Numbered from the stretch's first letter, positions 3,768 through 52,462 are shown. The stretch is 64,000 bases of DNA from Dipteris shenzhenensis (GCA_047967505.1 CM106538.1); one strand, 5' to 3'. The notes: generated by a model from the letters alone, not told the origin. A program made the numbers and translations.

Positions 3768-5429
3768 CCTATTTACTTATAAACTAAGTGATTTTTTCTT
3801 ACATTGAATTAAAACCCCCCTCATGTTATTGTAATCCTTTTTTTTTTTTTGAAAAGTTTAATTAAAATACCCCTCCTTTTGAATGCATGTGGTAACTAAG
3901 ATTTTGTGAGGTGAAACCCCTTAGGATGCCTTCTCTTACACGCTGCTCGACCTATATTTCTCCTTCCACATAGGTTAATACTTCACAACAAGACAATCTA
4001 CTGAGACGGATCACTACCTTTCTTGATACTCCAAGCCTTCCAAGAACCTCTGTACTCTAACCATGCGCTATAAGAGGACATATGTGAAGCACATACAGAT
4101 TTTGAATGTATTCTTAATGTGGGTTATGATGCCGGAGCTTCTAATTTTGCCACCAATCCCTCATCAAGATCGAGCTAGCGGTAGTAGCGGGGATTTTTTT
4201 AAGTATGTTTTTTAAAGAAAAGAACATGTTTTTCGATTTTAAAATGCTTTTGGACGATCAAATTGCAAAAAATGCATTTTTAAAAACCAATCAATAGGCA
4301 ACCCGCTGATCGACAAAATACCACTTGGTGTATCATAACACCGTGTAGTATTACGCTGTAAATATCGTACAGTAGAGTATAAGACCGCATGGTTAAAAGC
4401 ACTGCATAGTGAATATGTTTACCATGCGGTATCAAATACACCGATCGGTGTACCATTACACTGGGCAGTGTATTTGGATTACACCGGTCAGTGTAGTGCT
4501 ACACCGGTCGATGTAGTCAGTCGGGGCACGTGGTGTGCATGCAAGTTGTTAAATACACCGGCCAAAGTAGCGACATACTGTCCGATGTGTTCAGTTTGGT
4601 CTATAAAAGTTGCGGATCACGTCATTTTCATTCACTTTTACCATGATTTCCCATTGTATTCTACAGTTTTCCGTCGTCCCCTTCGGGAGAGCTTCTAGCC
4701 TTGCTTTTTTATTAGTCAATTAGGGTCAGGTGATGACTCCCTTCGATTGGCCCGAGTGACGTTCTATTAGGTAGTATCATGATCAAGGCCGGGTCAGACA
4801 GCTGGATTCACTCTACTTTGGTCTACTATCATATATTAATCATATATTGTAGATAGATGTCAATAGAGCCGGTTATTGTCCGGATGATATCTCGCTTTGG
4901 CCAACTGGATTCATCTCAACGACGCCCTTCCCAATGTGCTCAAGATGTGTGATCACATAATCACTGATCTAGATCATGCTGGTTCATTGAATCATGATTG
5001 ATGTTATATGTTTTCCTATTCATCTTTTATAGCCTATCCTCCTTCGATAAGGTCTCTTGGACCAATTACCGCTACCTACATTTTGCTTGCACCTCGATCG
5101 CTTGTATGAGCTATGCTATTGCTTATAGGGTCCATGCTATAATTATCCATTAGAAATTCATGTTAGCATGTGTGCATAGATATCAATTTTATTTCTAACG
5201 AAATTCATGTGCATAGATATCAATTTTATGCGTGTTTTGTGTTTTTGTACATATAACAATTTGATTTTTGCTTTCATCGTATCATAGTAGAGATTGTTGT
5301 GTTGATTATGTGATTTTTTCACTTTTGTTTTTGTAATGATTGTTGAGTGTTAACATAATGCATTACGATTGGGCCTTGGCATGTGAAAATTACTTAATTA
5401 CTTCTGTGTTGTTTTTTGTACGTACGTTA

Positions 5430-5458
5430 GGGGAGAATTGGGGTCTCAAAAGGGCCTC
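5430..5458 (+). mobile_element. Candidate left terminal inverted repeat (29 bp) of a DNA transposon
   Basis: (TTA)GGGGAGAATTGGGGTCTCAAAAGGGCCTC is the reverse complement of 50244-50275 with one mismatch. Confidence 0.7.
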
Positions 5459-5629
5459 ATAAGGAATGGATTAGGGAATGCTTAGTGGGCTAATGCAAGG
5501 GGCTTGGAGGGTCCCAAAGCGGCCTAACCAACCCAACCTAGGTGGGTTAAGCCCACATTTGAGCCCACCTCTGCCCCCATCAATGAGGGGAGGGGGCCAC
5601 TTTTTGAAATTTGAATTTCAAATTTCGAA

Positions 5630-6100
5630 TCTCCCTCCCTCCCTCTCTCTCTCCCCCTCCCTCCCTCTCTCTCCCTCCCTCTTCTCGCTCCTCCCTCCTT
5701 CCCTCCCTCCCTCCCTCCTCCTCCCTCTCCCTCTCCCTCTCCCTCTCCCTCCCTTCCCCTCCCCCCTCCTCTCCCCTCCTCCGTCTCGCTCCTCCTCCTC
5801 CCTCTTGCCTGTCCCCTCCTGCTCCTTCTAGCTCCTCCTACCTCCTTCCTCTTCCCTCCTTCTCCAGCTGCCCAGGCTCCCTCTCCTCTGCTCCTCCCTC
5901 TTGCAAAATCTCTCCCCTCCTCCTCCCTCCTATAGCATCTCTCCCCTCCTCCTTTTGCAGTAGCTCCTTCCTTCCCTTCTACACCTGTCGCCCTACTCTC
6001 CTCCTCCTCTCCCTCTTGCCCTCATCTGCTTCTCCTCCTCCTGCTTCCTTGCTACTCTCTCCCTCTCACTACTCCATCTTTGCCAGCCCTCTCCTATAGT
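5630..6100. repeat. C/T-rich low-complexity tract
   Basis: CCCT/CTC runs; the overlapping Pro/Ser/Leu ORFs are compositional. Confidence 0.85.
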
Positions 6101-6136
6101 TTAGCCTGCATCACTGATACCTCTCCTTGAGTACTC

Positions 6137-7175
6137 ATGGCACCATTCGAGGACATATCCAACAAGTACCATGTGAACCTACAATTGGAGGAAGAATATG
6201 CAAGCACACCAGATATGGTGGAACTCCTCAAAGTGTGCTCCACAGCCTTCGATTGTAAGGGAAGAAGCATCTTGACCTTTGGGTGGATGGAAACTTGTAT
6301 CCTTTAGACCCTGCCACCCAAAAGAGTCCTTCTTTTCATACAGTGCATGATGTTGTTCAGTTTGTTGGCAAGGGACATCCTGGATTTCTTGGTTATTACA
6401 ATCGATTGAACCATTCTCAGACATTGGCTATGCAAGCAAGCGAGGTGCAGAGAGCCCAAGCAGAAGAACTTGCACATTTGGGAAATATTACTATTGTGGC
6501 AATGCATAATAGTATGCAGGATCTCCAATTGCAAAACAAAGAACTTAGTGACAAAGCACATGCACTGGACTTGGAGTGACATGAATTGGAAGAATCAATC
6601 CAGAAGCTTGCTGAAAGAAAACAAGATTTGGAGAGGTCTATCTATGGCCAAGTTCGATGTGATGTGGAGAAGGAACGAGAGAAGTCGATAGAATGAGTAC
6701 AAAAGTTGAAGGGAACACCTTTGGGACTGAAGGAGAGGAAAAGACAATTGCAATCTATGGATGCATTATCAACCAATAGTGGTGCCCTAAAGAGGAGAAT
6801 ACGAGGTGCAAGGTTAGTTTCCCAAAATTTCTTACTCCAAAATATTTGTGGTGTTGCATTGTTTCCACTAAGACTCATTTATACTCTACTTTAGAAATTT
6901 CATGGAGGATGTGATGGGAACAATGGAGATGGATGATAGTGATCCTTCATATGTTCTAAGAAGTTTAATAAAGCCAAGTGATGCCATGGAAGTGTTGAAG
7001 GACCCGAGATAAAAAGGGCTACATGAAAAAGTTGCTAGAGAGGTAATGAAGGATTCCAAGGGCCTCATGCAAGCAAAGGAGGTGCTTGGAGCTTGTGATG
7101 CTGCTGGTGTAAGTCATGAAGCTTACAACTCTATTTTAAAAAATTTCAAGTCTGCTATGGAGGAAAAGTATAAGA
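6137..7175 (+). pseudogene. Degraded coiled-coil ORF reading inward from the TIR; probable transposon gene 5' part
   Basis: ATG at 6137 (MAPFEDISNKY). After a frameshift a heptad-like stretch continues through TGA stops (..LQNKELSDKAHALDLE*HELEESIQKLAERKQ..). A probable short intron lies near 6806-6894. Ends ..EVLGACDAAGVSHEAYNSILKNFK.. abruptly near 7175. Confidence 0.5.
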
Positions 7176-7304
7176 TATCAACACCTATTTCATTAATTTT
7201 GGACTTTTTGTGTTGTTTTTGGACGAAGCCCAAAAATCCTTCCCAAATGAAAACTTTACTTTGTGAAAATATCCTTCCCAAATCAAAATTTTACTTTCTG
7301 AAAA

Positions 7305-7600
7305 TATTCTTCCTAAATCAAAAGTTCACTTTGTGGCACTATCATATTCACATAAAAATATTGTTTTTTCAATCTGTACTTTGGCACCAACATGTAAGAA
7401 TTTGAAATAATCCTATATTAGAAATTCTAGCTATATCTAAGTTATTTGTTAATTTAATTATTTTTAATATTTTTCCTTGACGTTTTTCCTTCCCAAATCA
7501 AAAGTTCACTTTGTGGCACTATCATATTCACATAAAAATATTGTTTTTTCAATCTATACTTTTGCACCAACATGCAAGAATTTGAAATAATCCTATAATT
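7305..7600. repeat. Two-copy direct repeat, 180-bp period
   Basis: AAAGTTCACTTTGTGGCACTATCATATTCACATAAAAATATTG... begins at both 7321 and 7501. Confidence 0.9.
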
Positions 7601-7914
7601 TTTAATATTTTTCCTTGACGTTTTTCGTTGACGTGATAAATTTATAAATCCATGAAAGGAGACTTAAATATTTCATGAAAATAACATTGTCACTTGCAAT
7701 ATGCACAAAATTTTTAAAACATTTAATAAATAGAAAAAAGGCATGATGCCATAAGACCCAAGTTTTGTATTGAACCAAAGAGGTATAATAGCAATTATAG
7801 CTATTATTATATGATTACATTGAGAGACGTTGCTCTCAGCTAGAGTCTTTATATCCAAAATGATATAGATTGAACATACGTTTACAATTTAAATTGTTGC
7901 TCTTAAAGAGCCTC

Positions 7915-8330
7915 AATTTGTGCCATCTGCATAATTTGACTCCCCATTGTCTTATTGCTCAATGTCACGACAGTCCCTTGCCAGGTGCCATCTGCATAAT
8001 TTGACTCCCACTTGTCTTGCCCCCTTGGGTGCATTGACTCCCCATTGTCTTATTGCTCAATGTGATAGTCCCTTGCCAGGTGCCATCTGCATTAACTCCC
8101 TATTGTCTTGCCAAGCCTTGACCCTTAGGTGACATCCAGTGCAAAATATAGGTGCCATCTGCATTAACTCCCACAAGTTATCTTGCCAAGCCTTGCCCCT
8201 TGGGTGCATTGACTCCCCATTGTCTTATTGCTCAATGTGATAGTCCCTTGCCAGGTGCCATCTACATTAACTCCCTATTGTCTTGGAAAGCCTTGACCCT
8301 TGGGTGACATCCAGTGCATATTTTGACTCT
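7915..8330. repeat. Complex tandem repeat (~175-bp unit with subrepeats) just 3' of the transposase ORF
   Basis: GTGCCATCT(G/A)CAT occurs five times, TGACTCCCCATTGTCTTATTGCTCAATG three times, and CCCCTTGGGTGCATTG at 8021 and 8196. Confidence 0.85.
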
Positions 8331-8434
8331 CATTTGACATACGAGGTGATGACTTTGATTATAATTGTCTTGGATTGGCTCCTTGCCTAGTACCCAAATA
8401 AAATCCTTCAATGGACTTCAATACAAAGCTTTAA

Positions 8435-11400
8435 TCATGGACATTCTTCATTTGTGTTGTCTCCTTCTACTTCCTCCATGGCGAGCATCCTTAAAAATTC
8501 GTGTATATGCAAAATAGTTTGCTGTGGTATTTTTATTTTTCCTTCTACCTCATATCCCATGCGCTTCTTTGATTTCTTTGCCCTTGAATTCCAAGACACT
8601 ATGATTGTCTCCGTCGAAACTTGAGAGACCGCTTCATCATTTGGGACCCACTCCTTCATTATACAATTAGTATATAATGTGTTGTTATCCATATTCTCCT
8701 TCCTGCCCTTTGGCTCATACCATACCGCTGTAAATGTTGTAGCTCTCCCTTGGTCATCTCTTTGCACATCAACTACTTTTGCAACCCAAAACTTCACATT
8801 CTCATATTCATCATCCGATGGCCGAACCACAACAAAACAATCCACCTCTATATCTACTTGTGGCATAAACTCTCTCTTCTTCGGTCCACAATATGGACGT
8901 GGGAGTAATGATACAAATTCATTTTCAAAGACTGGAGCTGGGCGCAAATCGTTATGAACATTTGGCCAAAACATATTGCATTCTTCCTTGACATCCTTTG
9001 AGTCTCGCATTCTCTCAAGGTCCTTTATTAAATTTCGTGTCTTGTTAATTACAGTGGTAGTGTGTTCTCTCCAAATAGGCTTCGAATCAGGATATCTCCG
9101 GAGCATTTTCTCTTTGTATGTAATAAATGCTTTTAATCCTTCTATTTCACAATTAGACCTCTCATTGAATTCTTGTATAGGAGCCCATGTTGGATACCTT
9201 TCCTTGCTGGGAATTGAAGTTAAGAGACTGTAAGGTTCTTCAGGTTCCCATTTTGTATCATGAGAATACTGTTGCCATTGCATTACGGGTTTTTCATCTT
9301 TAAAAAAAAAATGAAAGTAGTGTGGATTGGTATGACCTGTCAATGCATCACCACCCGTTTGTATGAAAGGTAGAATGAAGCTCTTCCAATCATACATTCT
9401 TTCGAGCCTCTCACATACTGTACTTTCCTTACGATTACCAACTTGCCTGCCACATCTTCTTACCAAGTCATCTATTGTCTCCACAACCTTGCATTTAAGC
9501 TCCCTTGAGATTGTGCTAAAAACCTGATCGATATCCTCATGTGTATGCCCAACATACAAAAATCCACATTCCACCTCATTGAAGATTCGATGAGCAACTA
9601 GCATGGAGCAGAATGCAAACATGAGTACATTCTTATTTTCTCGCCAGCAATTATCAGCTTGTATTCTCAAAGTCGGTGGTAGGCGACCTTTTTCTACATG
9701 TACATTGCGAATTGCCTTCATAATAGATGTTACAACTTGATTGCTATCATGTAGATGCAAGGAATCAATCCATATATCTGCAAAGAACTTAATTCCATGC
9801 ACTAACACTCCACATAGATGTGTCTTTAGAAAGTGCTTTCCTTGTAATTTAGGTGGAGTGGCAACAAAATGAGGCAATGTTGTTGTATTCTGATCCATGC
9901 CATCTACAATAAGGCACATGTAGTCATCGGGATGCAAAATAGCTTGCTCCTTCCAAAATGCATATTTTTGTTTGGAATGTCGAATAAGGTCATGATGAGA
10001 TTTTCGGTGTCTTTTGTATAATTCCCTTTGATTTGGACATGTTGCACTCTCAATCGCTCGCTTTAAATCATCACAGACATTGCACTTTGACATTTTTTGC
10101 CTCCTTGGGAGAAGGTATTCATTTCTTTCGCTTCCTCTTCTTTGCCACACATGTCCTCTACATTCCTTGATGTCTGCAAGATCAATGAAGCACATACATC
10201 TTCGCTTGCAACATAGATATCCCAATGCATTTAACATGTTCTCCTCCTTCATTACTCTCTTCCTCTTTGGTTGCTTTTGTGGATCTGCCTGGATTCGCTT
10301 TCTCTTCATGCATATGTATGACCGTTTTCGTTCCTCGTGCACGTTGTTATCTATATTTATGCACTTCTTCTCCTCACATTTGTTTGTAACCAAGCATCCA
10401 TGATTGGTCGTTGCATCCTTGTCCATATCACAATCAAAGTTAAATATTGAATAATCCTCTGTTGATCTCATCCTCGTTTTTGACATACTCTTAGGACCAT
10501 TCAATGAATTCAATATTCTACGAGAGTATTGAGAACCTTGAAACTCTTCCACTCCTGAGAGAGCATCACTCATTGGGACATCTTGCATGGCTTTCACAAA
10601 TCCACAAGCTTGATTGACACCAGGTTTGTTAATATGCATGAACTCATCCACACTTGACAAGACATCGCTATTGAAACCTTTGCCCTTCTCACTATGCAAG
10701 AATTCATCCACCCCAGATAAGGCTTCGCTTCTAAAATCATTTTGTTTCTCAGAACCAATGAACTCATCCACTCCAGATAAGATGTCACTTCTATAATTGA
10801 GTCTATTGAAATCATCCACATTTGAAGTGATAGAGCCTAGCACATGGGCACGCTTTTTAGGTCCTTTGATATTGTAGTATACGTTGTCTTTATCATTGAA
10901 AACCATGTGCCTCTTTCTCATGTTTAAAAATTGCATGCTCCATCTCATATTCTTGCCTACCTCATAGTAGGGATCACATAAGGATGTTATGTTATCAACC
11001 ATACCATCATCAGTGGCTTTTAGAATCCTCATCTATGCAAATGACCATTGCTCCACTTGTTCAAATCCCAATACTTCACCTTCTGCTACAGTCTTATTTG
11101 CAAATGATCTCATTTGTAAAATGTCCCCTATAGTAAAATCCAAGGTGGTGCACTTTGTATTCTTGATAACGTCTGTTGCATAAGTCTCATCTTTGTCCCA
11201 TGCTATAAATGATTTGTTGGATGTATTGTAGGGCATAACATCTCCAAGTGTTTCCATATCTCCACATTTATACTTTCGCTCAACATGTGCACTAAGAATC
11301 TTTGATACAGTAACTGCCACCTTATCTTCGCTAAGTCTTCGAAAGTGGCAAACTGAATTGGGATCACTATCATGGATTGTAGCAAATGCAACTACTTCTC

Positions 11401-11478
11401 TTTTGCTACATAAAATCACATCCATCCCTGGAACAAAATCTATAGCCATCTCCTTTGTGAGAGTCCTTCGCAAGCAAG
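8435..11478 (-). pseudogene. Large DDD-type (RNase H-like) DNA transposase, Sola-like; single in-frame TAG at 11035-11033
   Basis: ORFs 11473-11033 and 11032-8435 are in the same frame. Motifs CLIVDGMDQ, LRIQADNCWRENKN and FLYVGHTHEDIDQVFS (three acidic catalytic candidates). Cys/His clusters CCKRRC and KCNVC..H. A splice acceptor precedes 11478. The superfamily assignment is from recalled motifs, not a search. Confidence 0.75.
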
Positions 11479-11569
11479 CTGCAGTAGCAACAATTACATA
11501 AATATTAGTCTCTTTTTAATAATCTACTCATTTATTATAATTTTAATTAGTACCTAATTTATTGGTGGG

Positions 11570-36591: not shown

Positions 36592-39500
36592 TTTTATTGG
36601 GGGGAATTTTAGTTGAGGGTTGTTTTTACATAGGGTTTCTTAGTAGTGCTCCCCCCAAGAAGGCATCCAACCAGCTCGAGAGCTCGAGTATTGAGCATAT
36701 ACACTTTTGAGAAACGCACCGCCTAGCACACGGTTTGGAGCAACACGGTATGTTTTTTACAGAGGCTGAGTGTTGAGTGATGTAGTTGTTTGTGCCGACT
36801 GTCGTTTCTTGATAGTTACTGAGAGAGCAGCACCAATTAACCTGGAATAGGTGGATCACCTGCATTAGAGAAATGACTAGGGTGGTTGTCACTATCGATT
36901 TTTGTGCAATGGCCAAAAAAATATTGCATACGAGTGACCTGGAGGCGACAGAGTCCTTGGAGAGCTCGAACAGAACGGGGATGCTCTTGGAGAGTTGGAG
37001 ACCTTTGCACTTGGAGCTGGAACGCCAACAACTGTCGACTGAGGAGTCAACCCGCCTACTCCGTTTGCTCGCACTTTGAGGCTTGCATGCATCTCTTCTT
37101 TGGTGGCTCGCGCAGGGAGCTGGGGATTCAGGAGGGAGGGAGCCTCTCTCCTTACTCTCATCTCCTTCCACGTGGCAGCTCTTCCTTTCCTTGCCCTCAT
37201 TTCTCCTTGCCTTCCTTGCAATCCACGTGGCTTCTTCTCTTCGTGCAATTCTTAAACCTCCCCTTAAAGAAGTAGAGAGAAGAGCCACCCTGAGCCTCTC
37301 GCCCTCGCCATCATCGCCATTTTACTCGACAGGCTCGGCGCGTACACTTAATATATCGACCCTCGAGATCCTTTCATCCTTTTTATGCGTGGAAGTTTCC
37401 CTCCTGCTCGTATTCCTTGTGTTATATTTATCGTCTATGATGCCCAAGGAAAATACTGTGCCAAAAATTTCGAATCATCTCTCTTGCTCTCCAATGCCAG
37501 TACAGGAGAGCAGAGCTTGTGATAGCATCTAGATTTAGGATCCTGTTGCCTGTACTAACGCCTTAGGATATTTCGCTTCCAAATGGTTATCATCACAACA
37601 GATGTCGAGATGATTCCACTTGGAAAAAGTAACGATGCTGAAAAAACCGCCTTTTCAGACGACGACACCTCACCTGTTGAGGAAGTCGCCATGACAGTAG
37701 CGACCACTGATGATCCAACCCTCCCCGTATGGACAGTCCGAATGTGGGTTCTTGGCCTGGTCTCTTGCGCTGGGCTAGCGTTTGTCAATCAGTTCTTCCA
37801 GTATCGAAGTGAACCCATGCAGATTACCGCACTGTCGGCCACTTTAGCAGCCCTACCTATAGGCCAATTCTTGGCATATGCTCTTCCCAAAACGGTGGTC
37901 CGGATCCCCTTCTTAAAGGATCGTGATTGGAGCTTTTCTCTAAATCCAGGACCTTTCAGTGTCAAGGAACATGTGCTTATCACTATCTTCGCCAATGCAG
38001 GGAATGCATTTGGTTATGGAGGGGCTTTTGCTGTTGAGATGGTGAACCTTATCAAGATATTTTACCACTTACGGATTACTTTCGCTGTAGCTCTCGTTCT
38101 CGTTCTTTCAAGCCAGGTAATTAGTATCTACAAGAAGTACTTATATCCGCCCTGATTTATGCAAACATGAGATAGCATTTCAAAGCTCACTCTAGCTGAA
38201 GATAAATTTTGCAGCTGATTGGATATGGTTGGGCCGGCTTAATGAGAAAGCAGTTGATTGATCCTGCACACATGTGGTGGCCGGCTACTATGGTTCAGGT
38301 CAGTCTGTTCAGGTAAGAGTCTTGGTGCCCTTCAATTTTCGGAGAGCTTCCCGGTTTTGGACGAATGGAAGTAAATATCTGGGTGTGATGGCCTGCAGGA
38401 CATTGCATGAACCCGATGAAAAGAAAGCAAGATCGGGCCTGTCGCGGATTCAAAGCTTCTACATCATGACGATCGTGAGCTTTGCATACTACGTTCTCCC
38501 GGGCTACTTTATGCCGTTCCTTACTTGCATGTCACTGGCATGCTTGATCTGGCCGCGGTCCATAAAGGCCCAACAGATAGGTTCCGGGTACACAGGACTC
38601 GGAATCGGGGCATTCACACTAGACTGGGCTGCGGTTGCGTCGTTCTTAGGTAGCCCACTCGTGTACCCTGCGTCCGTCCTCGTTAATATGGCGGTAGGAG
38701 CTGGAGCCGTAGTTTACATAGTAACACCCCTTGCGTATTACTGGAAAAACGCCTACAAAGCTCAGAATTTTCCAATCATTTCGTCGGGGCTCTTCACGGC
38801 AGCCGGGGGTCCATACAACGTCACAGCTGCTTTGCGACGAGATCTCACGCAAGGAGACTTGTACTTGAGTACCTTCTTTGCAATTAGCCTCGCCTTATGG
38901 TTCGCAGCTCCATTGGCTACGATCACTCATTTCGTTTTCTTTCACGGCACGTGAGTAGCTAATATCAGTCTTTGTCGAGCGTAAGGCCTTGTCTGAGGAT
39001 CATTTGCAGCGTTAAAACGGGTTCTCACTAGCTTGAGAAACGCTTCTAAAGCTTATGTTTTGAACATCAGGGAAACCCTGCACCACTACGCGGGGAAGCG
39101 GCGTCCGGATGTGCATACCCGATTGATGAGCCACTACCCGGATATCCCAGCCAGATGGTTTATGGGGCTCTTGTTGATGTGCGTGGTGGGGGTTATGGTG
39201 ATTTGTGTGCAGTTCAAGGCTCAAGTAGGCATTCCATGGTGGGGAGTTGTGGTGGGCTGCGCCATAGCTGCAGCCTTTACGCTACCCATCGGGGTGATCG
39301 CAGCGACCACAAACATGGTACGTGGTCTAATTGGTTTCTCTTGCTTTGGTTTGATTGATTGTGTATATACTCTAGATGAATAGGTAAAGATGTGGGTATC
39401 TGTGTGGTGGGCAGACGCCGTCGTTGATGGTAACGATGCAGTTCGTGGGGGGTTACCTCTTTCCTGGGAATCCCATCGCAAACCAGGGTCTCAAGTTGTT

Positions 39501-40353
39501 CGGACACATGAGCATGCAGCAGGCCATATATTTCTTGGTAGACTTCAAGCTCGGACATTATATGAAAATCCCTCCTCGGAGCATGTTCTTGGTCCAGGTG
39601 AGTTGCTTTGCTTCTTAACGTATAATAACTTACTACTCACACATAAATCTGGCCAATACAAAGCTAACCTAGGATCTTGCAGGTGATAGGTACCATAGTC
39701 GCAGGGACAGTGGACCTCGGTACGGCATGGTGGTTGTATGAAATACCCCACATGTGCAATGTGGATGGAAAGCTTGAGAAATCAAGTCCATGGACTTGCC
39801 CTTGGGATGTTGTGGCCTATGACACCACTATAGTGTGGGGGGTGTTGGGTCCTGATAGGACTTTTGGAAGTCAAGGCCCTTACAAGAATCTCATGTATTG
39901 GGTGCTAATTTTTGGGCTAGTGGGTCCCATGGTAGTGTGGTTGCTAGCAAAAGCCTTCCCTCGAGCTGCACCTTGGATCAAGCTCATAAATGTTCCTGTG
40001 TTGCTCGGGGCCGTGGGTTGGATGCCAGCTGCAGGAACTATCAACTACACATCTTGGTTTGTGGTGGGCATGGTCTTTAACTACTATATTTTACGATATC
40101 GAAAAGACTGGTGGAAGCGCTACAACTATGTGCTATCAGCTGCGTTGGATGCAGGCACTGCAATCATGGGTGTATTCTTGAGTCTGACAATCGGGTTTCG
40201 TGGCAAGGGCCTTGTCTGGTGGGGTGCCCAAAAATTCTCTGACCATTGCCCCCTTGCCTCTTGTGCGCTTTCGGGCTCTAATGGTGGTGCATCCCATTGC
40301 CCTCTTTACACTTAGCCATCCAAGTTTATCCAAAGAACATCTAATTTCTTTCC
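36587..40353. repeat. Right arm of long inverted duplication (pairs with 1-3767; may extend further right)
   Basis: Reverse complement of 1-3767 with three substitutions seen. Confidence 0.97.
37583..40315 (+). CDS. OPT: Oligopeptide transporter (OPT family), copy 2; exons 37583-38116, 38215-38312, 38399-38950, 39071-39317, 39415-39597, 39683-40315; 748 aa
   Basis: Same motifs and GT-AG introns as copy 1. The only coding difference seen is a synonymous Ser TCA/TCG at 40138. Confidence 0.95.
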
Positions 40354-41139
40354 AAATAGGCATTTGCTCTTCAATTATTTTACCTTTACATTCCTTGGTT
40401 GAAGGTTCATTGGGTCTAATTAGTAGTCACTAATCTTTCAACTAAAGGTAGAACTAAGGCAATTGCTCTTTATCTCTTCCTACTTTGCAGTAATGGCCAT
40501 TAGCATACCCATATCACCAACTTTCAAAGTTTCGTACATCTAAACTTGCTAGCTAATTATTAGTTCCTCTTTGGAAGGCATCACATGGGCCATTAGATTG
40601 TCTAGCCATCCAATTGACTCCCTTGCTCATTGTCTCCTATTAGGTAGACCATCCTCCACCCAAGATTTCTTATATCTTAGCTATTGAAGAGGTTCTCCAA
40701 CTTTTGATGATATTTAAACATGTAACAAAGGCCCTACCTACTCTTGTAGCCTACCTTTAAAATGTTCTCTGGTATGGCTCCCTTCCCAATAATTGATTTC
40801 CCCATCTTTTATCACAAACAACTTGATGTCCATACTATGAACATAATTGGAATTAAAAAATTGCACATTATTTAATAGTATTGTGAATTTAACAAACATA
40901 ATAAAATTCTTTTATACCAAATGTCGAATCTCTTGATTTATATTGTTAATAATCATATCATCTTGAAATAGCTATAATAGAAAGCATCTCATCTTGGACA
41001 TTGCATTTGTCAATAAAGCCATGATCATCTCATTCGTCATCTATCTAGTTGTCTAGCTTGTGTATGTTGGCTTTCTTCTTTTCTTTTCTTATAATGGTTA
41101 ATTTATGACCAAGAGATTCCTCGTATAACAATTGAAGAA

Positions 41140-41151
41140 TCTCTCTCTCTC

Positions 41152-41242
<91 letters not shown>

Positions 41243-41243
41243 C
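41140..41243. repeat. Compound microsatellite (CT)n(CTAT)n
   Basis: Read directly from the sequence. Confidence 0.95.
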
Positions 41244-41954
41244 CCCTATCGTGGACACCAATATCAATGTTTCCTATGAATGCTTTTTCTTCAGGGTTTT
41301 TCTCAAGACCATAGCATCGACATTAATGCAACAGTTACATTCATCCATATTATTATGGTATATATTACCATCAGTATGGGCATTAATAATACTCTAGCAA
41401 ACATTGATATTAGAGTCGATATTGCATTTGGAACAAAAAGAGTGTAAAAAAAAGCATCGATAATTCGTAAGAACCTTAACCATTGGTGGCAATTTTGGAC
41501 AATGTGGGTGTCACCTTGTACCTTGCAATAATAGAATCAAATACATATGTTTTCATAACCAAATATATTTTCTATAAATGTAGTCCTCCATTCTTTAATC
41601 AATTGTAGCATCACTAGAATCAAATTGACAAGTGGGACATGATGATGTGGACTGACAAACATGCTCGTTGATCGCAACATAGTTCTCACCACAACAAAAT
41701 TTTTAGAAATCCGTCATCTCTGTATAGCTTCCTTTATTGCATCAACGTTGCTAGTATCATTAGAGCTATTGTGCAGTAGCATCATATCAAATGGACTTAA
41801 GATGCTACTACAACGCAGGTTTTTTCTACATGTTTTTTATTAAAAAAAACTCTTACATACTCTTTAATTTCATAAATCTCAAATTAATTCTTTAGAAATG
41901 TAATTTCATATCATGTCAAAGAAATTTACATAAAAACCTACTATCTTGCACATG

Positions 41955-42510
41955 GGACTTTACAAATCCCTTGTCGTACATGGATCTGATACCTTAAGGG
42001 ACCCTAAACTCCTATATGGCATTCAAATCCCTTATGGGACATGGATAAAATCTCAATAGGGACTCCAAAACTCCTATGTGGGATTTTGAATCCTATAAGG
42101 GATCCTAAACTCCTGAATGTGGCTTGAATTCCCTTGTGAGACATGGATCAAAGCCTACAAGAAACCCTTAAAACTCCAATGTGGTACTTCAAATCCCATA
42201 AGAGGCTAGAAAATTCTGATAAAGGACTTTAAATCCCATAAGGAACCTTAAAACTCCTATGGAGACTTCAAATTCCATAAGGGACCACCAAACTCCTACA
42301 AGGGACTTTAAATATCCCATTTCAAAAATCAAATATTCCATGCAAGATGTTGATTCACTTCCATGATGGGCTTCTAAACTCATACGTGGGACTTTAAATA
42401 TCATGTTTAGGACTTCAAATGTTTCATGTGGAATATTGATCCACTCCTATATGGGAGTCCTAAACTTGTATGTGGGACCTCAAATGTTATGTTAAAGACT
42501 TCAAACATTC
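41955..42510. repeat. Degenerate ~21-bp minisatellite
   Basis: Recurring GGGAC(C/T)TTAAA(CT/AT)CC(T/C)AT-like units at ~21-bp spacing. Confidence 0.65.
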
Positions 42511-43864
42511 ATGTAGGATATTGGTTTGATCAATCTAGGGATATTGGTTCATTTGCATAAGCATTTCCAAGTATCATGCAAGTAATGACACAAAAAGGAG
42601 GAACTACCATGAGGGACCTTAAAGTCTCATATGGAAGCTATACAGGGCCTAAAAGAGGATAACAATAGGATATTTCACTTAGGGACATTTTTTCTATTGG
42701 GTGGTCTTAATATTTGATTGTTTTTTTCCATTTCAAACTTTTTTAATACTTGCAAGATTCCAAAGAACATAAGTATACAAGATCACCAAGCTGGAGAACT
42801 AAAAAGTTTCAATACTTCATACGGAGCTCCGAGCTAGTGAATTGATTCAATATTTAAAATAAATACTTCTATTTGGTTGCCAAAATAGTTTTATTTTTCC
42901 CTTCTACTTGTTGCCAAAATAGTTTTATTTATTTCTTAGTGAGTTTATGGGAGATTGGTTCTTATAAAAAATGCAATCAATAAGCTCATGTATTATGTGT
43001 AGAAATGCTTGGATATTGGAAACCTATACTGTTGTTCTAGGATATCCATGTCTTATGATACATGAACTCAAGTTATTTGATGTTCACAAGAAATACATAA
43101 TGTTTACATTGTGGGAATCAAGATGCAATGTGCAATGGAATAGGCTTGCAATAAGGAAAAGATTATTATAATGAATATGACAAATGTTCATTCTAGATAA
43201 GGGGATAGTTTATTTATCTAGTTTTTGTGATACATGAGAATAAAATTTAATATAGTGAAATCAAATACACAATGCAATTTATTGTACTATAATTTCAATT
43301 ATTAAAAATAAAATTATATTTTAGCTACTATGATGGAAATACTTCTCATGATTACATTACATCACATTATTTGTCATCATCTATAGGGTTCATTTCAATT
43401 TCTTAGCAATTACTCTCTCATAATGGCATTTTAGACCCAAAGTATGATAGTTCATGGGTTCTCATTTGCCTTGATGTGAGTGTGTTATAGGTTGTAGCTA
43501 AAATTTTTGAGTGTAGAAGGTAGGTGTTGAGAGAATAGAGGTCACGGTTTGTTATGGAATCGATGGAGAAAGTATATGATGATAGGAGAACTTAGTTACT
43601 AATAGTTAGAAACTCAACACTCCATTGAGTATACACACCATTGATAGAGAAAAGGAAACTACATTTGTATATATTGAAGGATTTGATACAACCAAGCCAC
43701 CTTAGCTTTCAATGAAGACTCAGTGATAGGCTTCCTAACCTAGCAAGCTAGGTGAGAGGGAGAGTGTGAACTCGCAATGTCACTCTCTTCCCTCCTCTTT
43801 GTTACAATGCTTTTCTAAATTACTACAAAATCATTGTCTAAAGGTGGGTCGCTCGTCCCACCAC

Positions 43865-44620
43865 CACTACTAACACGGATCCTATTGCGACACTTAAGTA
43901 TCGACATTTAGCGTGTGCGGGGCGCTAATCATCGGTATTGGAAGTGGGGTTCGTTAAGAGTCGCTATATAGCGACTTTAGTAAAACGTCACTATATAGCG
44001 ACGTTTGCCTAAAGTCGCTATATAGCGACTTTTATCAGATTGGTAATGGTCATTATATAGCGACACTGAGATAGTTTTTTATAGAGACATTTTACAAAGA
44101 GTTTTTTTTCCCATACCAACCTTAAAATATAGTTTTTTCCAATGACAAATTTTTTTATATTTTCATACATGTTTGATCCTTTGAGAGAATAAAAGTACGA
44201 GAGCATATACATCAAGCCGAGATCAAGCCTTTGAAGCACATATATTCATGTCTAAGTTTAAGATGAAAAAATTCAATGAAGAACATTTACATCAACGGTT
44301 TCACAAGTCTAACGTGCCAAACAAGTCTATCTCTAACTCTATACCGAGTTGATCTCCTATATCATCATCATACTCTAGCATCGTACATTCACCTAAGAGT
44401 ACTTGATCATCTTCTTTAATAAAGTGTGGTGATTCTTGATGATCTTCATCTTCTTCCTTAATATCATGATCTCCATCTTCCTCCCATATGATGTCATTAT
44501 GTGCATCTTCCTCTTGGCTCATATTGTGATCTTCATCTTCTTCGCTAGACTCATCTGGATGAATTGGATCCGGCATTGGTATTGGCATCTCCATATCCAC
44601 ATCTCCATTGGCTTCTGATG
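43865..44620 (-). mobile_element. CACTA terminus with palindromic subterminal repeats and acidic ORF tail
   Basis: CACTACTAAC at 43865; GTCGCTATATAGCGAC palindromes at ~43960-44030; Asp/Glu-rich ORF 44600-44301 resembling the tail at 31312-31440. Confidence 0.7.
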
Positions 44621-47050
44621 GAGAAAGATGAAACTGAGTACCTGAAGGGGTGAATGTGGAACAACTAAGGCAATTTGCTCGAGTTCCTATCCCCCTAGAT
44701 AAAAATCCTACCTGACCTATTGACTACATTGACTTGCACCTCTAATGCTTGAAAATATTCCAATGGAAGAGTTGTGTGTTGGTCGAAAGAAACCTCATAC
44801 ACATGAAGGCAAATATGACAGATGAGTTTTGGTGATCCTATTCTTCTAGTGGATGACCTATTCACTTTGAGTATGGAGCAAATAGAGTGGAAGTATCTCT
44901 AGAACCCAAGCAAAAAAGTCCAAATCTAGTTCTAACATGAAGGTAAAATTTAGACTTTAAAAGGCACTGATGACGAAGACCCATATAGTCATCTTCAAAG
45001 TTTCTTGTGACCCACTGCAAGCTTGGACCCCACTAGTTGTGTTTGTTGCACTAAGAACTCACATCCAGTGAGGTACATTGGCCAAACTCCATTCCCATCC
45101 ATAGGGGGGTCACTAGGAAATATGTAAGATAGCAGCTGCGATCAATGGAGGGGGTTTTATATTTTTATGGAGTTACAAAAAATATACATACATATGGTGT
45201 TTTTTAATTCAAAAAGTGAACATTTTCATACATAAGGGATATAGAAGGGGTGTATATAGGTTATATAAACCTATAGGAAGGGGTTTTGTTTAATACCCCT
45301 TGATCGCATGTGCTAATCCACTCTTGCAGAGTCTGTACCTATTCATGTGCTACCTAGTTGAGAACCTTCGGATCCATTCTCGTCTTTTGCACATTATCTA
45401 GTGCAATTTGAAGTTGGGGGATGGCTGCTATGAGATTGATATTCTCATCCTTGGACCTAGAATTCAAGGATTACAATCTATCCTCTTTGTACTTCAGATT
45501 GCCATGGTCTATAGCTCGGTGTGATTTTGGCACAGTAGGGAGTGGTTTTCCACTAGGTTTTAGTGATTTTGGTGCAATAGGGATTGGTTTTCCACTAGCT
45601 TGTTATAGACTCATCTTCTTGCTATCTAGCTTCTCCTATAGACTGTGTCACTTGGTAGTGAGATCACCCTGTGGATGCCTTAAACCAACTATGTGCTCCT
45701 CAAAAAATGGAGTTAGCTCTTCCCCATCCTATGTCTGAAGAAACAAGTTGTGATCTAACGTTTGGGGAGGAATCTAATAATTTCCCACTGTGATTTAGTG
45801 GCATGGCAATCCATATGATCATCCTCTATAAACATAGGATCGAGTGAAAATGGCTCAAGAGGAGCCAAGAAGTTGAAAGCCTAAGGGAGGACAAATTGCA
45901 CCTTAAAGGGATGCTAGAGAATTATTCCCAACTCCAATCTTTGATCCAGCTAATCTAGGTACCTAATGAGCACCCACCCAAGTTGCCCTAAAGATAGGAG
46001 CCACCAGACAATGATAAGTCTACAGGCAATACTGGTGTGCGCCACCTATCATAAACAACTTGGATAGGTCCCTCAGAGCAGAAGCCTACAATAGGTAATG
46101 GCAACACTCCAAGAACAACTAAGTAGTTGAAGTTGTGACTGCACATGCCCTTTTATTGTTGCATCCACTAGGCTGAGCAAAATTTGAGTGTGCAGAGATG
46201 TGGGATCCCAGACCCACACCAGTTTTGTAGAGGAGGCGGGATTTCAAGCGTTATTTTTTATGGAGAATAATTTTGAACTTGGGACCCAAACATTGCCCAA
46301 GCAAGTTCTTGAATCTGAGCCCATACATTCAAGACAAGATCTTCTTGATGCTATGTGGATATCCCAAGTCCTGCATGAGTACTCGACCACAAGCTTTTAC
46401 CTATCCTTACAAGGCTTGGTGATAGATTGAGGAAATTGATTTTAGTCTCCCTTCTCCCCCATAGCCTCTCCACCAGGGCATATTAGGGCTGGTCCAACCC
46501 AAAATCTCAATACACAACTGTGCCATACGTACCTTCAATCCTTTTGTCTAGGATCGAGCGAACGATGCCTTATTGTTGCCTAGATCCATAAACTCCCTAA
46601 GCCATGTATTCTCGAGCTCCCATACTATTATGCAAAAATTCTATGAGAGTTGGAAAAACTCATAACTAGCCATACTACTGAGTAGCAATGTGGAACAACA
46701 TATGCAATCTATGTAAATATCCACTTACCAAGTGGTAGGAGATGTCAAACCTATCGACGACCCCAACACCAAGTTATGGGGTCAGTGGATTGGCTAAATT
46801 ATCTAGACATGCCATCACTAGACATCAAATTTCTCTACTTGTGGGCTTCCCTTGAGCAACAGAAAAGATTAAACCCCTTTGACTCTCCATCTCTAGGCCC
46901 TCGTCCTCCAGTGTCCCTCCTTGACAAAGCTACTAACATTGCACAACAACCATGTTGCTTCAATCCCCGTGCATTTGAGAAATGGTTGGTACATGTAAAT
47001 ATGCAACCATGACGACTCGATGAAGAAAGACAATGGTGAGCAACAATGTA

Positions 47051-47303
47051 CACTACAAGGCATAGATCCTTTTCCGACGAAAATACCGACGTTTTTTACA
47101 CTTTTTTATTTTAAACGGGTGCAAAGGTCGTTATTTACGTTGTTATAAGCATCAAAAAAGAACGGTCGCTATATAAGCGTTGCTATATAGTGACGCTAAT
47201 AAACATCCCTATATAGCGACACTAGTAAACATTGCTATATAGCAACATTGGTAAACATCGCTATATAGTGACGATTAATAGAACTTTTAAAAAAACATTA
47301 GTG
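47051..47303. mobile_element. Short CACTA end/fragment
   Basis: CACTACAAGG at 47051; multiple GCTATATAG(C/T)GAC repeats at 47166-47275; TAGTG at 47299-47303; no matching TSD. Confidence 0.6.
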
Positions 47304-47304
47304 G

Positions 47305-50056
47305 GGCTAAACAGGGCCATAGCATCCTCCAAGTGGTAAATCCCCTATTTGGAAGTGCCTTTGTGGTCTCAACTTCTTTTTGCCTAAATCAGAATCCCCC
47401 TCTTTCTGTTTTCCCCTCTTGGCATCACCATGTCCATTTTCAGGCTCTTTTTCCTTGGCCCTCTTCAATGGCATCACTTTAGGATCTTCTAAATGTATTG
47501 GAGAAACATCGGCATGCTTTTCATCTATCTTTCCCTTCCCTTTTTCCTTAGGTGTTAAACCACTTGTTCTAGGCATTCCCTTTATCTCTATTCCATAGTC
47601 ATTTGCCCGATTATTCAAACTGCTTGGCAAGGGCAACATGTCTCCACCTCTACAAGGAGGATTATCACAATTCGGACTAGTATGGCCCCAATCCCCACAA
47701 TTATAGCAGTGATAGGGTTCAAAACTCCTTTAATTACTTCTCTACCTACTCCTGGATCTTGTCTATATCCTAGATTTTGATACAATGGCCTGGTTTCTCT
47801 ACATTGTCCTCTTCCTACTCCACCCAAAAGGTCCAGATTGAGATTTTTTAACATCTCCACTACCTCATGCATTTCTTTAGGTAGACTATCATTCTCGGTA
47901 TTCTCTGTTTCTGCCTGTGCAACCAAAGTGTTCATAGAAGCCTATTCCTCTCTCCTAGGCATTTGTTATTAAGCTCTGATGGCCATCTGCTCCATTCTAT
48001 CATCTTCCATTCTTTTGACTTTGCCAAGTCGATTGCTTCTTGAAATGTGGCTACAAGCTTCAATTCTATCCTCATCCATAGAGGGCCTCTAAGTACAACA
48101 ATGAATTCTCCTCTTTTAGCATGGAAGGTGATTGCTCATTCCCTAGTGCCACGCACCATCGATCCCACAAGTGGCCAAAGTCCTGAATGTATGAATCAAG
48201 GGGTTCTTTTTGCATGAAATTTTTTATTTCATGTCACAACATATCTAGATCTTGTACCCTCTTGTAGTGCTGTAGAAAGTCATTCATTGCTAATCCAACT
48301 GTTACCTCTACCTGTAGATTATTTGCCGCTTGCGTGGCTTCATAGGCATGAAACCATTGCCTGACTTCATCTTGCACACAATACGTAAGGATTCGTAGCA
48401 TGAAGGCTGGGTCTTTCCAATTCTTGATTAAACAAGTGATTTCCAACTGTTCCATGAATTTCCCAGCATCCTTCCTAGGAGTTCCATGAAACATGGGAAA
48501 ATATTGAGCCATAATTCCTATAAACATCCACCAACAACTTCGTTCTTGTAAATTGAAGGTCCAGAGTTTAATCCTCTATGGAGGCACCAAAAACATGATG
48601 AGACGAGCAAATCTAACTTGAAATTCCTTCATAGCTAGGAACACAGTCATGTTTGCAAACACACTGAGAAGAAATGCAATCTCGATGCAAAATCAAATCA
48701 CCATAACTGGAAACAAATACCATATACCAATAACTGTCGAAAATGCAAAGATCACTTGAAGCATATAACAGTCACAATTTCTTCAAAATCATGAACTCGT
48801 AATAAGGAGAACCCCTGGTAGGATCAGATATGACCTTTCTTGCCAAAGACTAGATGCCTTGGAACTCAAATGGGATCTTGGACCTTGCCTGCATTGCAAC
48901 TTTTGCACGGCTTTAAAGAAACTCTTCAAACAATCAAAAGAAACCTCCCTTTACACTTTTTTCTTCTTACTAATGCCAACAACCAAATGAAAGGTCGCAA
49001 GCTATTGAGTTGATCACTATGCACAAGAAAGTCATGCCATAAACTTCACTTCACCCAAGATTTTCTCTAAGCCTTCAAAAGAAAATTGCTTAAAGACAAA
49101 GGTGACCCTTGTCATTATTTATAGAATCATGCTTGTTCCAAAATTTCTCTCACTCTCATCAACATCGTTTTGCTAGCATACAAACTATTAGAGCACATTG
49201 ATCTAGGAGATATGGCTTCAAGTTGTAACCTATGGCAACCATTAGTCGCTCACACGAACCTTTAAAGGAGTTCCCAAACCTCCTGCCATCCCTTAACCTT
49301 CATGCAACCGACCGGTTGTGTCTTGTCATAGCCACCAACCAAGAAGATTTCTTGCAAACCATCTGCCTTTTGCAAATGATCCAACTCTTTCTCTTGCTTT
49401 AGCTTTAATCACAAACAGTAGCAAGCCATTTGCAACTCTATCTACCACCCATGAATTCGACTAGAATTGTTTAGGTCTGAGGTGACACAAGCTCCTGCCA
49501 CTTCCAATTCTTTTCAAGACTCTTGCAGTCCTCTACAACACTCAGTTGTTGCTTCTACGAGTGTCCATGAGCCAATGATCTGCTTCACACATTCGTGTTG
49601 CTATAGCTTTTATCATAGAGCGCTTATAATGTTTGTTGTGACCCCATCATCCTTGGCTGGTTCTTTTGACCAAGGATCATGCTCTAGAATTAGCAGGACG
49701 ATAGAAAGCATGTGCTACACAACTGATTCATGAACAGTTTGCACAGATAATGGGGGACGGGTCACCTCTTGCTTGAGTTGCTGATATTCTTAGTACTCCA
49801 TGCAAATATTGGAAATAACCCTAACCACCATGCTCTGTTGTAGAAGGGTATTCACGACCAATTTCCTCATGGGCTGATGATAGCCTCCTATGATCTTAAA
49901 CCAACAAAACTTTCCCCAAGCAACAATCAACTATGAACTCGGGACCTGATAATCATGTGTAAATCACTTAGGCACAGCAAAGCTTCTTTGGACCAAAGAT
50001 CAGCCACACAATGGCTCCATTTATTATTATGCACCATGCAAATCCTTTCTCTTACA
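47305..50056 (-). mobile_element. Degraded Gypsy-like LTR retrotransposon 5' part (putative LTR ~50056-48596, PBS-like TGGTGCCTCC, gag remnant)
   Basis: Gag-like FPMFHG..DAGKFMEQLE..VRQWF (48527-48234); CCHC knuckle CYNCGDWGHTSPNC at ~47708-47667; many stops. LTR limits tentative. Confidence 0.6.
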
Positions 50057-50243
50057 TTGTAACCTCACACACACACGTAGGGCTATCAATCAACAATTTT
50101 GATCTTCCATCAACTAGCAAAACTCTGAATGAGAATCAGCCAATCACCTTCAACTAGCAAAACTCTACACCACACCTTCTAGCACTCTCATTGATACACC
50201 TCAAATCACTCTCTAATCCCTTGAAATTAGAAAACACTAATTG

Positions 50244-50272
50244 GAGGCCCTTTTGAGACCCCGATTCTCCCC
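50244..50272 (-). mobile_element. Candidate right terminal inverted repeat (29 bp)
   Basis: GAGGCCCTTTTGAGACCCCGATTCTCCCC(TAA); 28/29 match to the reverse complement of 5430-5458. Confidence 0.7.
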
Positions 50273-52462
50273 TAATGACCTTGACCTGTGAGTCAACACT
50301 AACAACCAAGATGGGCAACTCCCACTATCAACTGAAATGAACACAAGGCTCATGAAGAATGTGATCAACTTCCCTCTTCAACTTGAGACGAGCACAAAGA
50401 TGGTCATGAACCAAGGCTATCCACCCTTCTTATAGATGGCCAACTGGTAGGTGCTTTTCTCTTCCTTTACTTTTCATTCCTTGCTTTTCCATGCAAATCC
50501 TTGGCTTGATTGGCTATTTTCATCCACCAATGGGAGCCATCCCTTTAATTCCTTTCTTTATGGTCCTCTCTTTACGGAAAGTACTCCTTACCTATAGTCT
50601 CTTCAAGAAGAGCATGGGTCCTTCTTTCAGTGCATAACTGACCACTCCCTTCACTGCCCTTTCCCCACGAGGGTTTGAAAGCACATAGTCTTCACTCACT
50701 TGAGCATCCATTCCATGTACCATAGGCAAGACCCAAGGCCCACATCGAAAGCTCCAATGGCTATCCAATCATCTCATTGGTGTCAAATTCTTGTCATTAT
50801 TTCCTACAATCAGGGCTCTCATACAAGCGAATTTATTTATGAAATATATAGTAAATACAAAACATTAGTTTCAAAAAATCGAAGAGGTGGCTATCGTGCT
50901 ATTCACTAGCTACCATTGTCTACCCTATCCATGTGAGCTACACATGTGCCTATCAATGCTAGTTTCTCCTATACATAGGTGCTCCTATACGTGATCTGCA
51001 TGGCATTTGCATCCGATACAAAAAGATATCAGTCGCACAAAAAAAGCCCATCAACTAGAGCGAAAGTGGGTTGGAAAGAGATAGACTAAGAGACAAAGGG
51101 ATTAAGAGAGAGATATACATACATAGAGATTAAGAGAGATACAGAGAGATACTATCACAGATACTATGAGAACAAATAGAGATATGGCCATGGAGCCTCA
51201 TCATTGCATCTCTTTTTGGATAGTTGGTGGTTACGGGAGGACAATCAGGGAGACACCAATTCTGCATGTGCATCCAAACACTAATCATTCTCCTTTTCTC
51301 CTGGTTATCTAGTTTTTCTACTATTTTTCTTTCTCAAAGAATCTCTCTTGTTTGTCTTCTCTAGCATTCCTTTGGATACCTACCATCCTCTTTCTCAAAT
51401 CTCCTCTCTTATTTGCACTCACAGAACACTCCAAGATCTCATCTCTTGTTACTCCTCTCTTGTGGTTGATGTAGTTCTTTGCAAAATGAGCAAATAGATA
51501 ACTATTGCAAAAGATGATTTTTCCTTTCAAAGAGGACGTTTTGGAGCTCAATCTTGACACTATGACAGAGACAGCTGACCTAGAAGGTGTGTCTATGACC
51601 TTGAAGCCTATGACATTGAATCTTACTGACATAAAGCTTGAACCTACTGTGAACCTCCCTGGCGGTGCAATTGGATTTTTGTTGGATCCCAATGTGAACA
51701 AATCCTCTAGAGTCTATAGAGATAATATGAGTAACAGAGTGGAGATAAACTTGGAAGATTAAGGTGAAGAGATTAGGCAGCTTATCACTAGTGTACTATC
51801 CTTGATCCGGTCTCTACCTTTGAACACTAGTTTGCATGTAGTGTTGCATAGTGTTGCTATTGTCTTGCCTCCATGTGCTTGTAAGTCTGCCATGTTTAGA
51901 AAGGAGCAAAATAATGACTATCATCCATGGACAGAATATGTTACTTGTAGCAATGACTGTTTTGAAGGGGTCATTCATTTCCATATGTGTGTTGGGCTTC
52001 TGCGATGCATCAACTTGGAATTCTCCTTCTATTCTAGGATGCATTATCATAATGAAATGCAATAGAAAGGGAGATTGAAACAATCTTGTCCCATTGTTTG
52101 TTTTGTTGTGCCGAGTTTGGTAATATTGCTTGTCGCCATTGGGTGAGACACAAAATGTATTTTAGCATGCCTTGTTGTGATCTACTATTGCATTCCGAGG
52201 GACCACATTGCTACCACTAGATGCGCTATACATCTTGGTAATAATTTCCATCCATATGAAGAGGGTACTAGTAGAGGTAATGTGGAAAGCATAGAGGAGA
52301 AGTTGATTTCCCTTTACCACCCCCAAGTAGTTGGAGACAAATGTTGGTAAAGATGTGGTTCTAGATGTGCTGATGGTTGACAATCAAGGGGAATAGCAGG
52401 AGATTACCAAGTTACTAGAGTATGCAACTCCTTTATCTAATAGTAAATGAATTGAAAAATGT

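Follow-up and report, generated by a model that had tools for sequence, protein, structure and literature searches.

What does a pair of closely matched inverted repeats mean when its members stand almost 45 kb apart? The question is raised by a 64,000-nucleotide stretch of Dipteris shenzhenensis DNA (GCA_047967505.1 CM106538.1; hereafter the window), in which two 29-bp terminal inverted repeats (TIRs), separated by about 44.8 kb, enclose a transposase gene of the DUF7869 family, a satellite, retroelement pieces and one of two copies of an OPT oligopeptide-transporter gene. An earlier note on this DNA had read the interval as a possible giant cargo-carrying DNA transposon, proposing either one element inflated by nested insertions and host-gene capture or the ends of two family members. 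We find that both repeats are real transposon-type termini, and the pair marks a member of an uncharacterised, widespread family of D-D-D TIR transposons with probable affinity to Sola. In the account we favour, to which we give even weight for and against, both TIRs belong to one cut-and-paste insertion that duplicated a TA dinucleotide and was later passively inflated. The interval is probably a disrupted, immobile element and not a cargo carrier; the idea of a giant DNA transposon of the plant lineage with a host transporter gene on board finds no support, and a recent local inverted duplication fits the OPT gene better. If both ends do come from one insertion, TA is a first duplication length for the DUF7869 transposases, a family otherwise uncharacterised, and a true TA duplication would mean either that this family is distinct from Sola or that the 4-bp rule of Sola is not universal.

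The termini and the enzyme between them

The features that carry the argument are the following:
5428-5429: candidate 2-bp target-site duplication, TA, on the left; T at 5427 precedes it
5430-5458, plus strand: left 29-bp TIR, exact match
5459-8434, plus strand: left non-coding arm, with C/T-rich low-complexity DNA at about 5630-6100 and a 176-bp tandem duplication
8435-11515, minus strand: transposase gene, a 1,027-codon stop-to-stop frame (PF25273)
50244-50272, minus strand: right 29-bp TIR, one mismatch
50273-50274: TA beside the right terminus; A at 50275 follows

The left TIR reads GGGGAGAATTGGGGTCTCAAAAGGGCCTC, and the right TIR is its reverse complement with a single mismatch, a T/C difference at the tenth base. 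When up to three mismatches are allowed, the 29-mer has two matches only in the window, a result that none of 100 dinucleotide shuffles reproduced. Either half of the 29-mer alone retrieves just the two known sites, and a blastn-short search of the window with a 32-mer query found no weaker third terminus. Read from the outside in, both ends begin TTA followed by GGGGAGAAT, so that the inverted match extends to 32 bp; the flanking DNA ends in ACGTTA on the left and begins with TAATGAC on the right. Across five boundary registers and nine duplication lengths (2-10 bp), the sole direct duplication in any register is TA, which would place the element at 5430-50272. The pair of repeats, their single mismatch and the TA read as a direct duplication are as the earlier note had described them.

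The left terminus is the edge of a multi-copy transposon family. Word matches to 3800-8400 occur in only two public runs (shares 0.17 and 0.12), namely a 2-Mb contig set of "organism A" (X1) and an "algae metagenome" (X2), whose contigs were placed on 1-11600; their depths are not copy numbers, and gaps between them are not evidence of absence. The contigs cover 5443-11600, with a summed word depth per bin of 18-195 in X1 and 1.6-29 in X2, and the depth falls to about 0 in both over the flank at 4258-5418. Over the left arm they lie at 5443-5626, about 6130-6280, 6825-7179 and then from 7692 onward. The leftmost X1 contig (about 5443-5626) has a depth of 38.7, as against 44-83 over most of the gene, and its start beside an empty flank puts the edge of the family at 5430 or very close to it; the contig is probably broken by the variable T/C base, which lies at 5439. 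One set of contigs is about 98-99.7 % like the window (1-14 differences per 270-923 bases) and the other about 85 %, and these two classes of likeness imply at least two subfamilies. The 176-bp duplication, at 8016-8143 and 8192-8318 in the 3' untranslated arm of the transposon, varies in copy number, one X2 contig skipping 175 bp from 8005 to 8181. No Pfam family was found in the left arm in five frames from 6259-7402 or in two over 5524-6099, two 30-letter loose-end consensus strings from the contig placement have no match in the window, and the left flank (3768-5429) has no homology to any other part of the window.

The transposase frame contains one in-frame stop (11030-11032) and no frameshift in 3,081 bases, and it matches Pfam DUF7869 (E 6.9e-53) with no other family found in the frame. 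Among 1,093 candidate proteins, 46 match the enzyme at E <= 1e-3, and all 46 carry DUF7869. The best relative over most of the query is 48 % identical, with a few partial matches at 49-54 %; the one named relative among the 46 is an uncharacterised sea-urchin protein, and the atlas neighbours of the enzyme are eukaryotic (arthropods, tardigrades and cnidarians). A literature search found no paper naming the family. Alignments of 16 and of 26 sequences conserve the motifs D-G-M-D-Q, A-D-N..R-E-N-K-N and G-H-T-H-E-D-I-D-Q, with CxxC motifs upstream. In both alignments core residues D78 and D201 are invariant and D161 and D203 nearly so, which gives a catalytic spacing of D-83-D-40-D; D78, D161 and D201/D203 correspond to D377, D460 and D500/502 of the 865-aa frame, in which H-T-H-E-D-I-D occupies 496-502.

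An AlphaFold2 model of the 421-aa core (pLDDT 82.8, pTM 0.83) puts these aspartates where they are canonical for an RNase H-like fold: D78 ends a strand at 72-79, D161 ends a strand at 155-161, and D201/D203 start a helix at 200-215. Foldseek returned weak RNase H-like matches only, including IstA, integrases, TnsB and Argonaute. An exhaustive structural aligner ranked mariner Mos1 first (Z 8.2, rmsd 4.0 over 182 residues), effectively tied with Rous sarcoma virus (RSV) integrase (Z 8.0), Metnase (7.9) and IstA (7.9), and a family profile search of the Protein Data Bank (PDB) sequences gave no hits at E <= 10. Going by the model and the alignments, the enzyme is a cut-and-paste transposase of the D-D-D type, RNase H-like in its core and with no close solved relative, in agreement with the DDD transposase that the earlier note had placed in the interval. 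It is the only one seen in the window: a tblastn search with the enzyme itself gave chance-level matches outside 8435-11515 (E 2.3-6.0), and the 46 homologues used as queries gave none there at E <= 1e-3.

Further, distant relatives come from metagenomes, where 151 of 364 candidate stretches encode one; 80 loci were kept, on contigs of 1-12 kb and with 23-56 % identity. Three scripts that looked at these loci for flanking inverted repeats with duplications and for shared contig boundaries found nothing convincing. The longest repeats, of 27 bp (locus L007) and 29 bp (L050), lack a 2-10 bp duplication, and other long repeats were rejected as termini, being microsatellites or internal palindromic motifs. 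The viral_contigs set yielded no relative. In genome_contigs three relatives (L081-L083) lie on 2.5-3.4-kb contigs that had been assigned to bacterial metagenome-assembled genomes (MAGs), one each from an actinobacterium, a member of the Rhizobiaceae and a Limnohabitans; mis-binning of eukaryotic contigs is the most likely cause.

The interior of the interval and the OPT duplication

Between and beyond the termini the window holds the following features:
1-3767, minus strand: OPT copy 1 (arm A), not enclosed by the TIR pair; truncated by the window start
11610-20936: 182-bp satellite, about 51 units by self-BLAST; Tandem Repeats Finder (TRF) gives 12429-20936
20937-25600: low-complexity and tandem DNA rich in G and GA, with maxima of 0.665 for GC and 0.66 for GC skew
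26004-27756, plus strand: degraded reverse transcriptase without long terminal repeats (non-LTR type; RVT_1, E 1.3e-23), like that of a long interspersed nuclear element (LINE), with one frameshift and one stop
29736-36586, plus strand: copia-derived debris
31444-34114: nested 2.7-kb element with 335-bp direct repeats 97.9 % alike
36587-40353, plus strand: OPT copy 2 (arm B), reverse complement of 1-3767
40354-50243: 9.9 kb beside the right terminus, with two 17-bp subterminal direct repeats
54301-59749: intact young copia outside the TIR pair; its 298-bp LTRs are 99.3 % alike, and it has frames for gag, integrase and RVT_2

The 9.3-kb satellite and the second OPT copy thus lie within the interval, as the earlier note had stated, and the question is how each came to be there. 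The array begins upstream of the transposase frame, at a distance of about 100 bp. Over most of the array its best self-matches fall at steps of about 545 bp, a 3-unit higher-order repeat, and its units carry indels, which leaves un-gapped autocorrelation uninformative. A 253-letter X2 contig places its first 225 letters on 11377-11600 and continues for about 28 letters beyond the placed stretch; if these letters follow the window they are satellite-like, which suggests that the start of the satellite is native to the family. The family copies would then apparently carry satellite-like sequence just upstream of the transposase gene, and subterminal repeats of the transposon itself may have given rise to the satellite. 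With its promoter-side end apparently running into a 182-bp satellite, this transposon is a possible case of a transposon-seeded satellite.

Beyond the array, the window from 22001 to 24000 has a GC content of 0.665 and a GC skew of 0.66, and 21900-25600 is made of 72-464-bp tandem units. Two similar TATA-like, AT-rich segments (about 21740-21950 and 23830-24000) are interleaved in this G/GA-rich stretch. The resemblance of its part at 23.4-25.6 kb to the C/T-rich 5630-6100 was considered as a sign of a nearer right end and rejected, as it is a low-complexity reverse complement and no terminus follows it.

Part of the copia debris belongs to the family of the intact element at 54301-59749, which has a perfect 5-bp AGACT duplication and a primer site, TGGTATCAGAGC, that we take to be of the tRNA-Met type. 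That family has also left older fragments, at 29736-30625 and 36178-36586, which include two copies of the 5' LTR and leader (29736-30264 and 36178-36586) that are 90.6 % alike. These two repeats are not the LTR pair of one element: each aligns across the LTR end of the 54301-59749 copia into its leader. The only frame in the nested element at 31444-34114 is a copia-type gag (32298-32813, minus strand).

The OPT gene entered by another route. Arms A and B differ at 3 of 3,767 bases (arm-A positions 216, 3082 and 3682), an identity of 99.92 %, and it is because of so few differences that the duplication must be very recent. It spans the whole gene and about 1 kb upstream, with arms 32.8 kb apart; arm A lies 1.66 kb from the left terminus, outside the pair, and the true duplication may be longer than the window reveals. 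The OPT exon is equally close to its counterparts from seed plants, ferns and conifers, at about 50 % identity, and a single protein from a public run reaches 79 %; this marks the host as a streptophyte that lacks a near annotated relative. At 36586/36587 arm B is joined to the second copia leader, about 50 bp beyond the LTR end, and the two partners have GGTGT (5 bp) in common. This junction is not a transposon boundary; to judge by its bases, it bears the signature of end joining or template switching. OPT copy 2 therefore looks like a segmental duplication of the repair or replication type that entered after the element's arrival. With a twin arm outside the TIR pair and a junction in a copia leader, it is not cargo capture, and the host-gene capture that the earlier note had proposed is not supported.

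The same evidence bears on the idea that the 44.8-kb interval is a present or recent mobile macrotransposon, with the satellite, the retroelements and the OPT gene as cargo. Such a unit would account for the convergent TIRs with TA on both sides and for the nearly intact transposase gene inside; Sola elements of more than 15 kb are on record in the available part of PMC10741241, and plant Sola elements of about 10-11 kb in that of PMC12973397. Against this stand the OPT copy, explained by duplication and joined in a copia leader instead of at a transposon end, and the public contigs, in which the family covers 5443-11600 while the depth over OPT arm A (1-2709) is 0 in both X1 and X2. The retroelements of the interior are fragmentary, as passive decay predicts, there is no sign of a second copy of the large unit, and nothing shows that a 44.8-kb unit ever moved whole. 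We consider this explanation very improbable, the least credible of those weighed here.

Either the OPT region was rearranged recently and in reality, or its arrangement reflects a false join. In the latter case the assembly would have switched strand or haplotype at the copia leader (36586), a mis-join that brought in everything right of 36587, which would truly lie to the left of the window in the opposite orientation, the right terminus included. An identity of 99.92 % between arms at least 3,767 bases long, a junction within a dispersed copia leader, a typical site of false joins, and the cutting of arm A by the window edge all suit such an error. The 32.8 kb between the arms is not what a simple fold-back would give, and the three differences show that two distinct sequences were assembled. 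A mis-join is accordingly an unlikely explanation, if a little less so than a mobile macrotransposon.

Next to the right terminus, 40354-50243 matches no family at the Pfam cut-off in the 12 frames scanned. In all, 28 frames from 40354-54300, 28535-29656 and the left flank and arm gave none at that cut-off, and four weak sub-threshold matches were disregarded. Any part of 40354-50243 may belong to the element itself or prolong the duplication of the OPT region.

One insertion or two

The evenly weighted account with which we began takes both TIRs as the ends of one insertion, and we infer both this common origin and the order of events that follows. A family copy would have inserted into a T-TA-A context, duplicating the TA. 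Its ends, initially roughly 10-20 kb apart, would have been spread to the present 44.8 kb by growth of the 182-bp satellite and by the gain of low-complexity DNA, the LINE-like element and the copia fragments, the latest step being the inverted segmental duplication of the neighbouring OPT gene.

Several observations favour this history. The termini are convergent, and neither has another partner, even a weak one, in 64 kb. A right end should be nearby, because cut-and-paste delivers both ends and the left gene looks young (98-99.7 % contig likeness); 50272 is the only candidate right end for the transposase-bearing copy. TA flanks both ends, with a symmetry that extends to TTA/TAA. That two one-ended copies should meet by chance within 45 kb would be unlikely at the presumed density of the family. 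The interior is visibly in part secondary, with its retroelement pieces and an OPT duplication arm with a microhomology junction. If the model is right, the D-83-D-40-D spacing and the Mos1 and Metnase neighbours would also fit, weakly, a TA-duplicating enzyme.

The symmetry of the flanks deserves separate comment. Over three bases the left flank reads TTA and the right one TAA; over four they read GTTA and TAAT, so that, as the earlier note had recognised, the ends share neither a 3-bp duplication of the Harbinger type nor a 4-bp duplication of the Sola type. A symmetric TTA at both ends excludes a single 3- or 4-bp duplication; it would fit a TA duplication within T-TA-A, two independent insertions of TWA type, or chance (about 1/64).

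A number of points weigh against a single insertion. If the family is Sola, a 4-bp match should exist, and there is none in the five registers. The 300 bp inside each TIR are dissimilar, with a local score of 13 compared with 10.6 +/- 1.5 (maximum 16) in 200 shuffles; the earlier note had rightly called these sequences unrelated. The 17-bp subterminal direct repeat of the right end (50110-50126 and 50150-50166) is absent from the left end, and a search of metagenome_contigs, viral_contigs and genome_contigs for the terminus, as a 24-base pattern with N at the variable base, gave 0 loci. A copy whose gene is almost intact would have to have gathered about 38 kb of secondary DNA, and the nested LTR pair inside it is already 2.1 % diverged. 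Finally, since the window start cuts arm A, arm B may extend past 50272, and the duplication would then have brought the right terminus with it.

These points lend themselves to a second explanation, in which the left TIR ends the transposase-bearing copy and the right one is a right-type end of another copy or subfamily, each with its own target duplication and each having lost its partner by deletion or rearrangement; the ends would face each other through chance clustering, or the second would have been brought by the recent inverted duplication. Two copies need share no 3- or 4-bp duplication, while Sola makes 4-bp ones (available parts of PMC10741241 and PMC12973397), and TTA and TAA are each a legal TWA site if the family duplicates 3 bp. 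The unrelated subterminal regions, the 17-bp repeat confined to the right end and a demonstrably rearranged region, with fragmented copia copies and an inverted duplication whose arms fall on either side of the left terminus, are all as expected. The transposase frame with its 3-kb arm, 6.2 kb at 5430-11600, by itself comes close to the 5,445 bp that Sola1 averages in bivalves in the available part of PMC10294476. This explanation nevertheless calls for two one-ended copies, exactly convergent within 45 kb, although the left copy looks young, and neither a second transposase nor either of the missing ends has left a trace in the window. The symmetric TTA, too, would be unexpected for independent insertions that duplicate 4 bp, arising by chance in about 1/64 of cases. 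We regard two copies as a serious possibility, the less probable of the two, and keep one inflated insertion as the favoured account.

Comparison with known transposon groups

The TIR is one that we take to be unlike Stowaway-type termini. TTA and TAA beside G-rich termini are the target triplets of PIF/Harbinger transposons. A single PIF/Harbinger insertion has identical triplets, in contrast to the TTA and TAA found here, and no DDE_Tnp_4/Plant_tran transposase or Myb-like open reading frame was found in the 17 + 28 frames scanned.

Giant cargo transposons such as Starship and Teratorn have tens of kilobases between their termini, contain host-type genes, move as units and recur with their cargo. 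The interval resembles them in the distance between its termini and in the host-type gene inside. It differs in that its "cargo" is what a local inverted duplication left as one of its arms, amid DNA that is otherwise repeat debris, and neither a tyrosine recombinase nor a piggyBac-type enzyme was found in the frames scanned against Pfam.

Tc1/mariner elements always duplicate TA, as the available part of PMC10741241 has it, and the pair resembles them in the TA on both sides, in a short TIR of about 30 bp and in a D-D-D enzyme whose second and third aspartates lie about 40 residues apart. The modelled core also has Mos1 and Metnase among its top neighbours, tied with retroviral integrases, IstA and TnsB. 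The differences lie in the enzyme, which at about 1,000 aa is some three times longer than the roughly 340 aa of Tc1/mariner transposases with their paired-like HTH, has no match to Pfam DDE_1, DDE_3 or Transposase_1, and matches no solved chain by sequence. The structural resemblance to mariner, as modelled, may reflect only the shared RNase H-like fold. A bolder combination, in which DUF7869 enzymes define a TA-duplicating lineage of large D-D-D transposons, unlike canonical Sola and nearest mariner in structure, with a native satellite, mobilisable at tens of kilobases and here moving the OPT gene and the 9-kb satellite, strikes us as far-fetched, on a par with the mis-join.

Sola invites the fullest comparison. 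In the available part of PMC10741241, Sola elements have DDD transposases, make 4-bp duplications, are mostly 2-9 kb long and are present in Physcomitrella; the superfamily was without a Pfam family in 2017 (available part of PMC5751038). The accessible rows of Table S2 of PMC12973397 list four plant Sola clusters, from two mosses and a fern, with a TSD_length of 4 in all four and TIRs of 26-32 bp. TIR_left begins GGGTG in three of them, and the printed representative sequence of the fourth begins GGGTG as well; the sequence cells hold at least 9.9-11.2 thousand characters. Two of these clusters, 4008 and 4009, give the moss Rhytidiadelphus loreus and the tree fern Cibotium barometz a nearly identical Sola terminus, and in print their two rows seem to have exchanged TIR and representative sequences; the likeness could be horizontal transfer, contamination or a table slip.

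Sola TIRs vary in sequence and range from 11 to 1,124 bp, and the 29-bp TIR of the pair (GGGGAGA...) resembles those of plant Sola, by eye, at the first 8 or so bases only. A difference is that Sola is defined by its 4-bp duplications, whereas the pair, taken as one element, shares TA only. The likenesses are these: a DDD transposase with an RNase H-like core is found here as in Sola, the large enzyme has no older Pfam family and only recent DUF7869 matches, its relatives are patchily spread across eukaryotes, non-seed plants are among the hosts, and the elements are large. Likened in this way through published descriptions of Sola, the DUF7869 enzyme is plausibly a transposase of the Sola kind.

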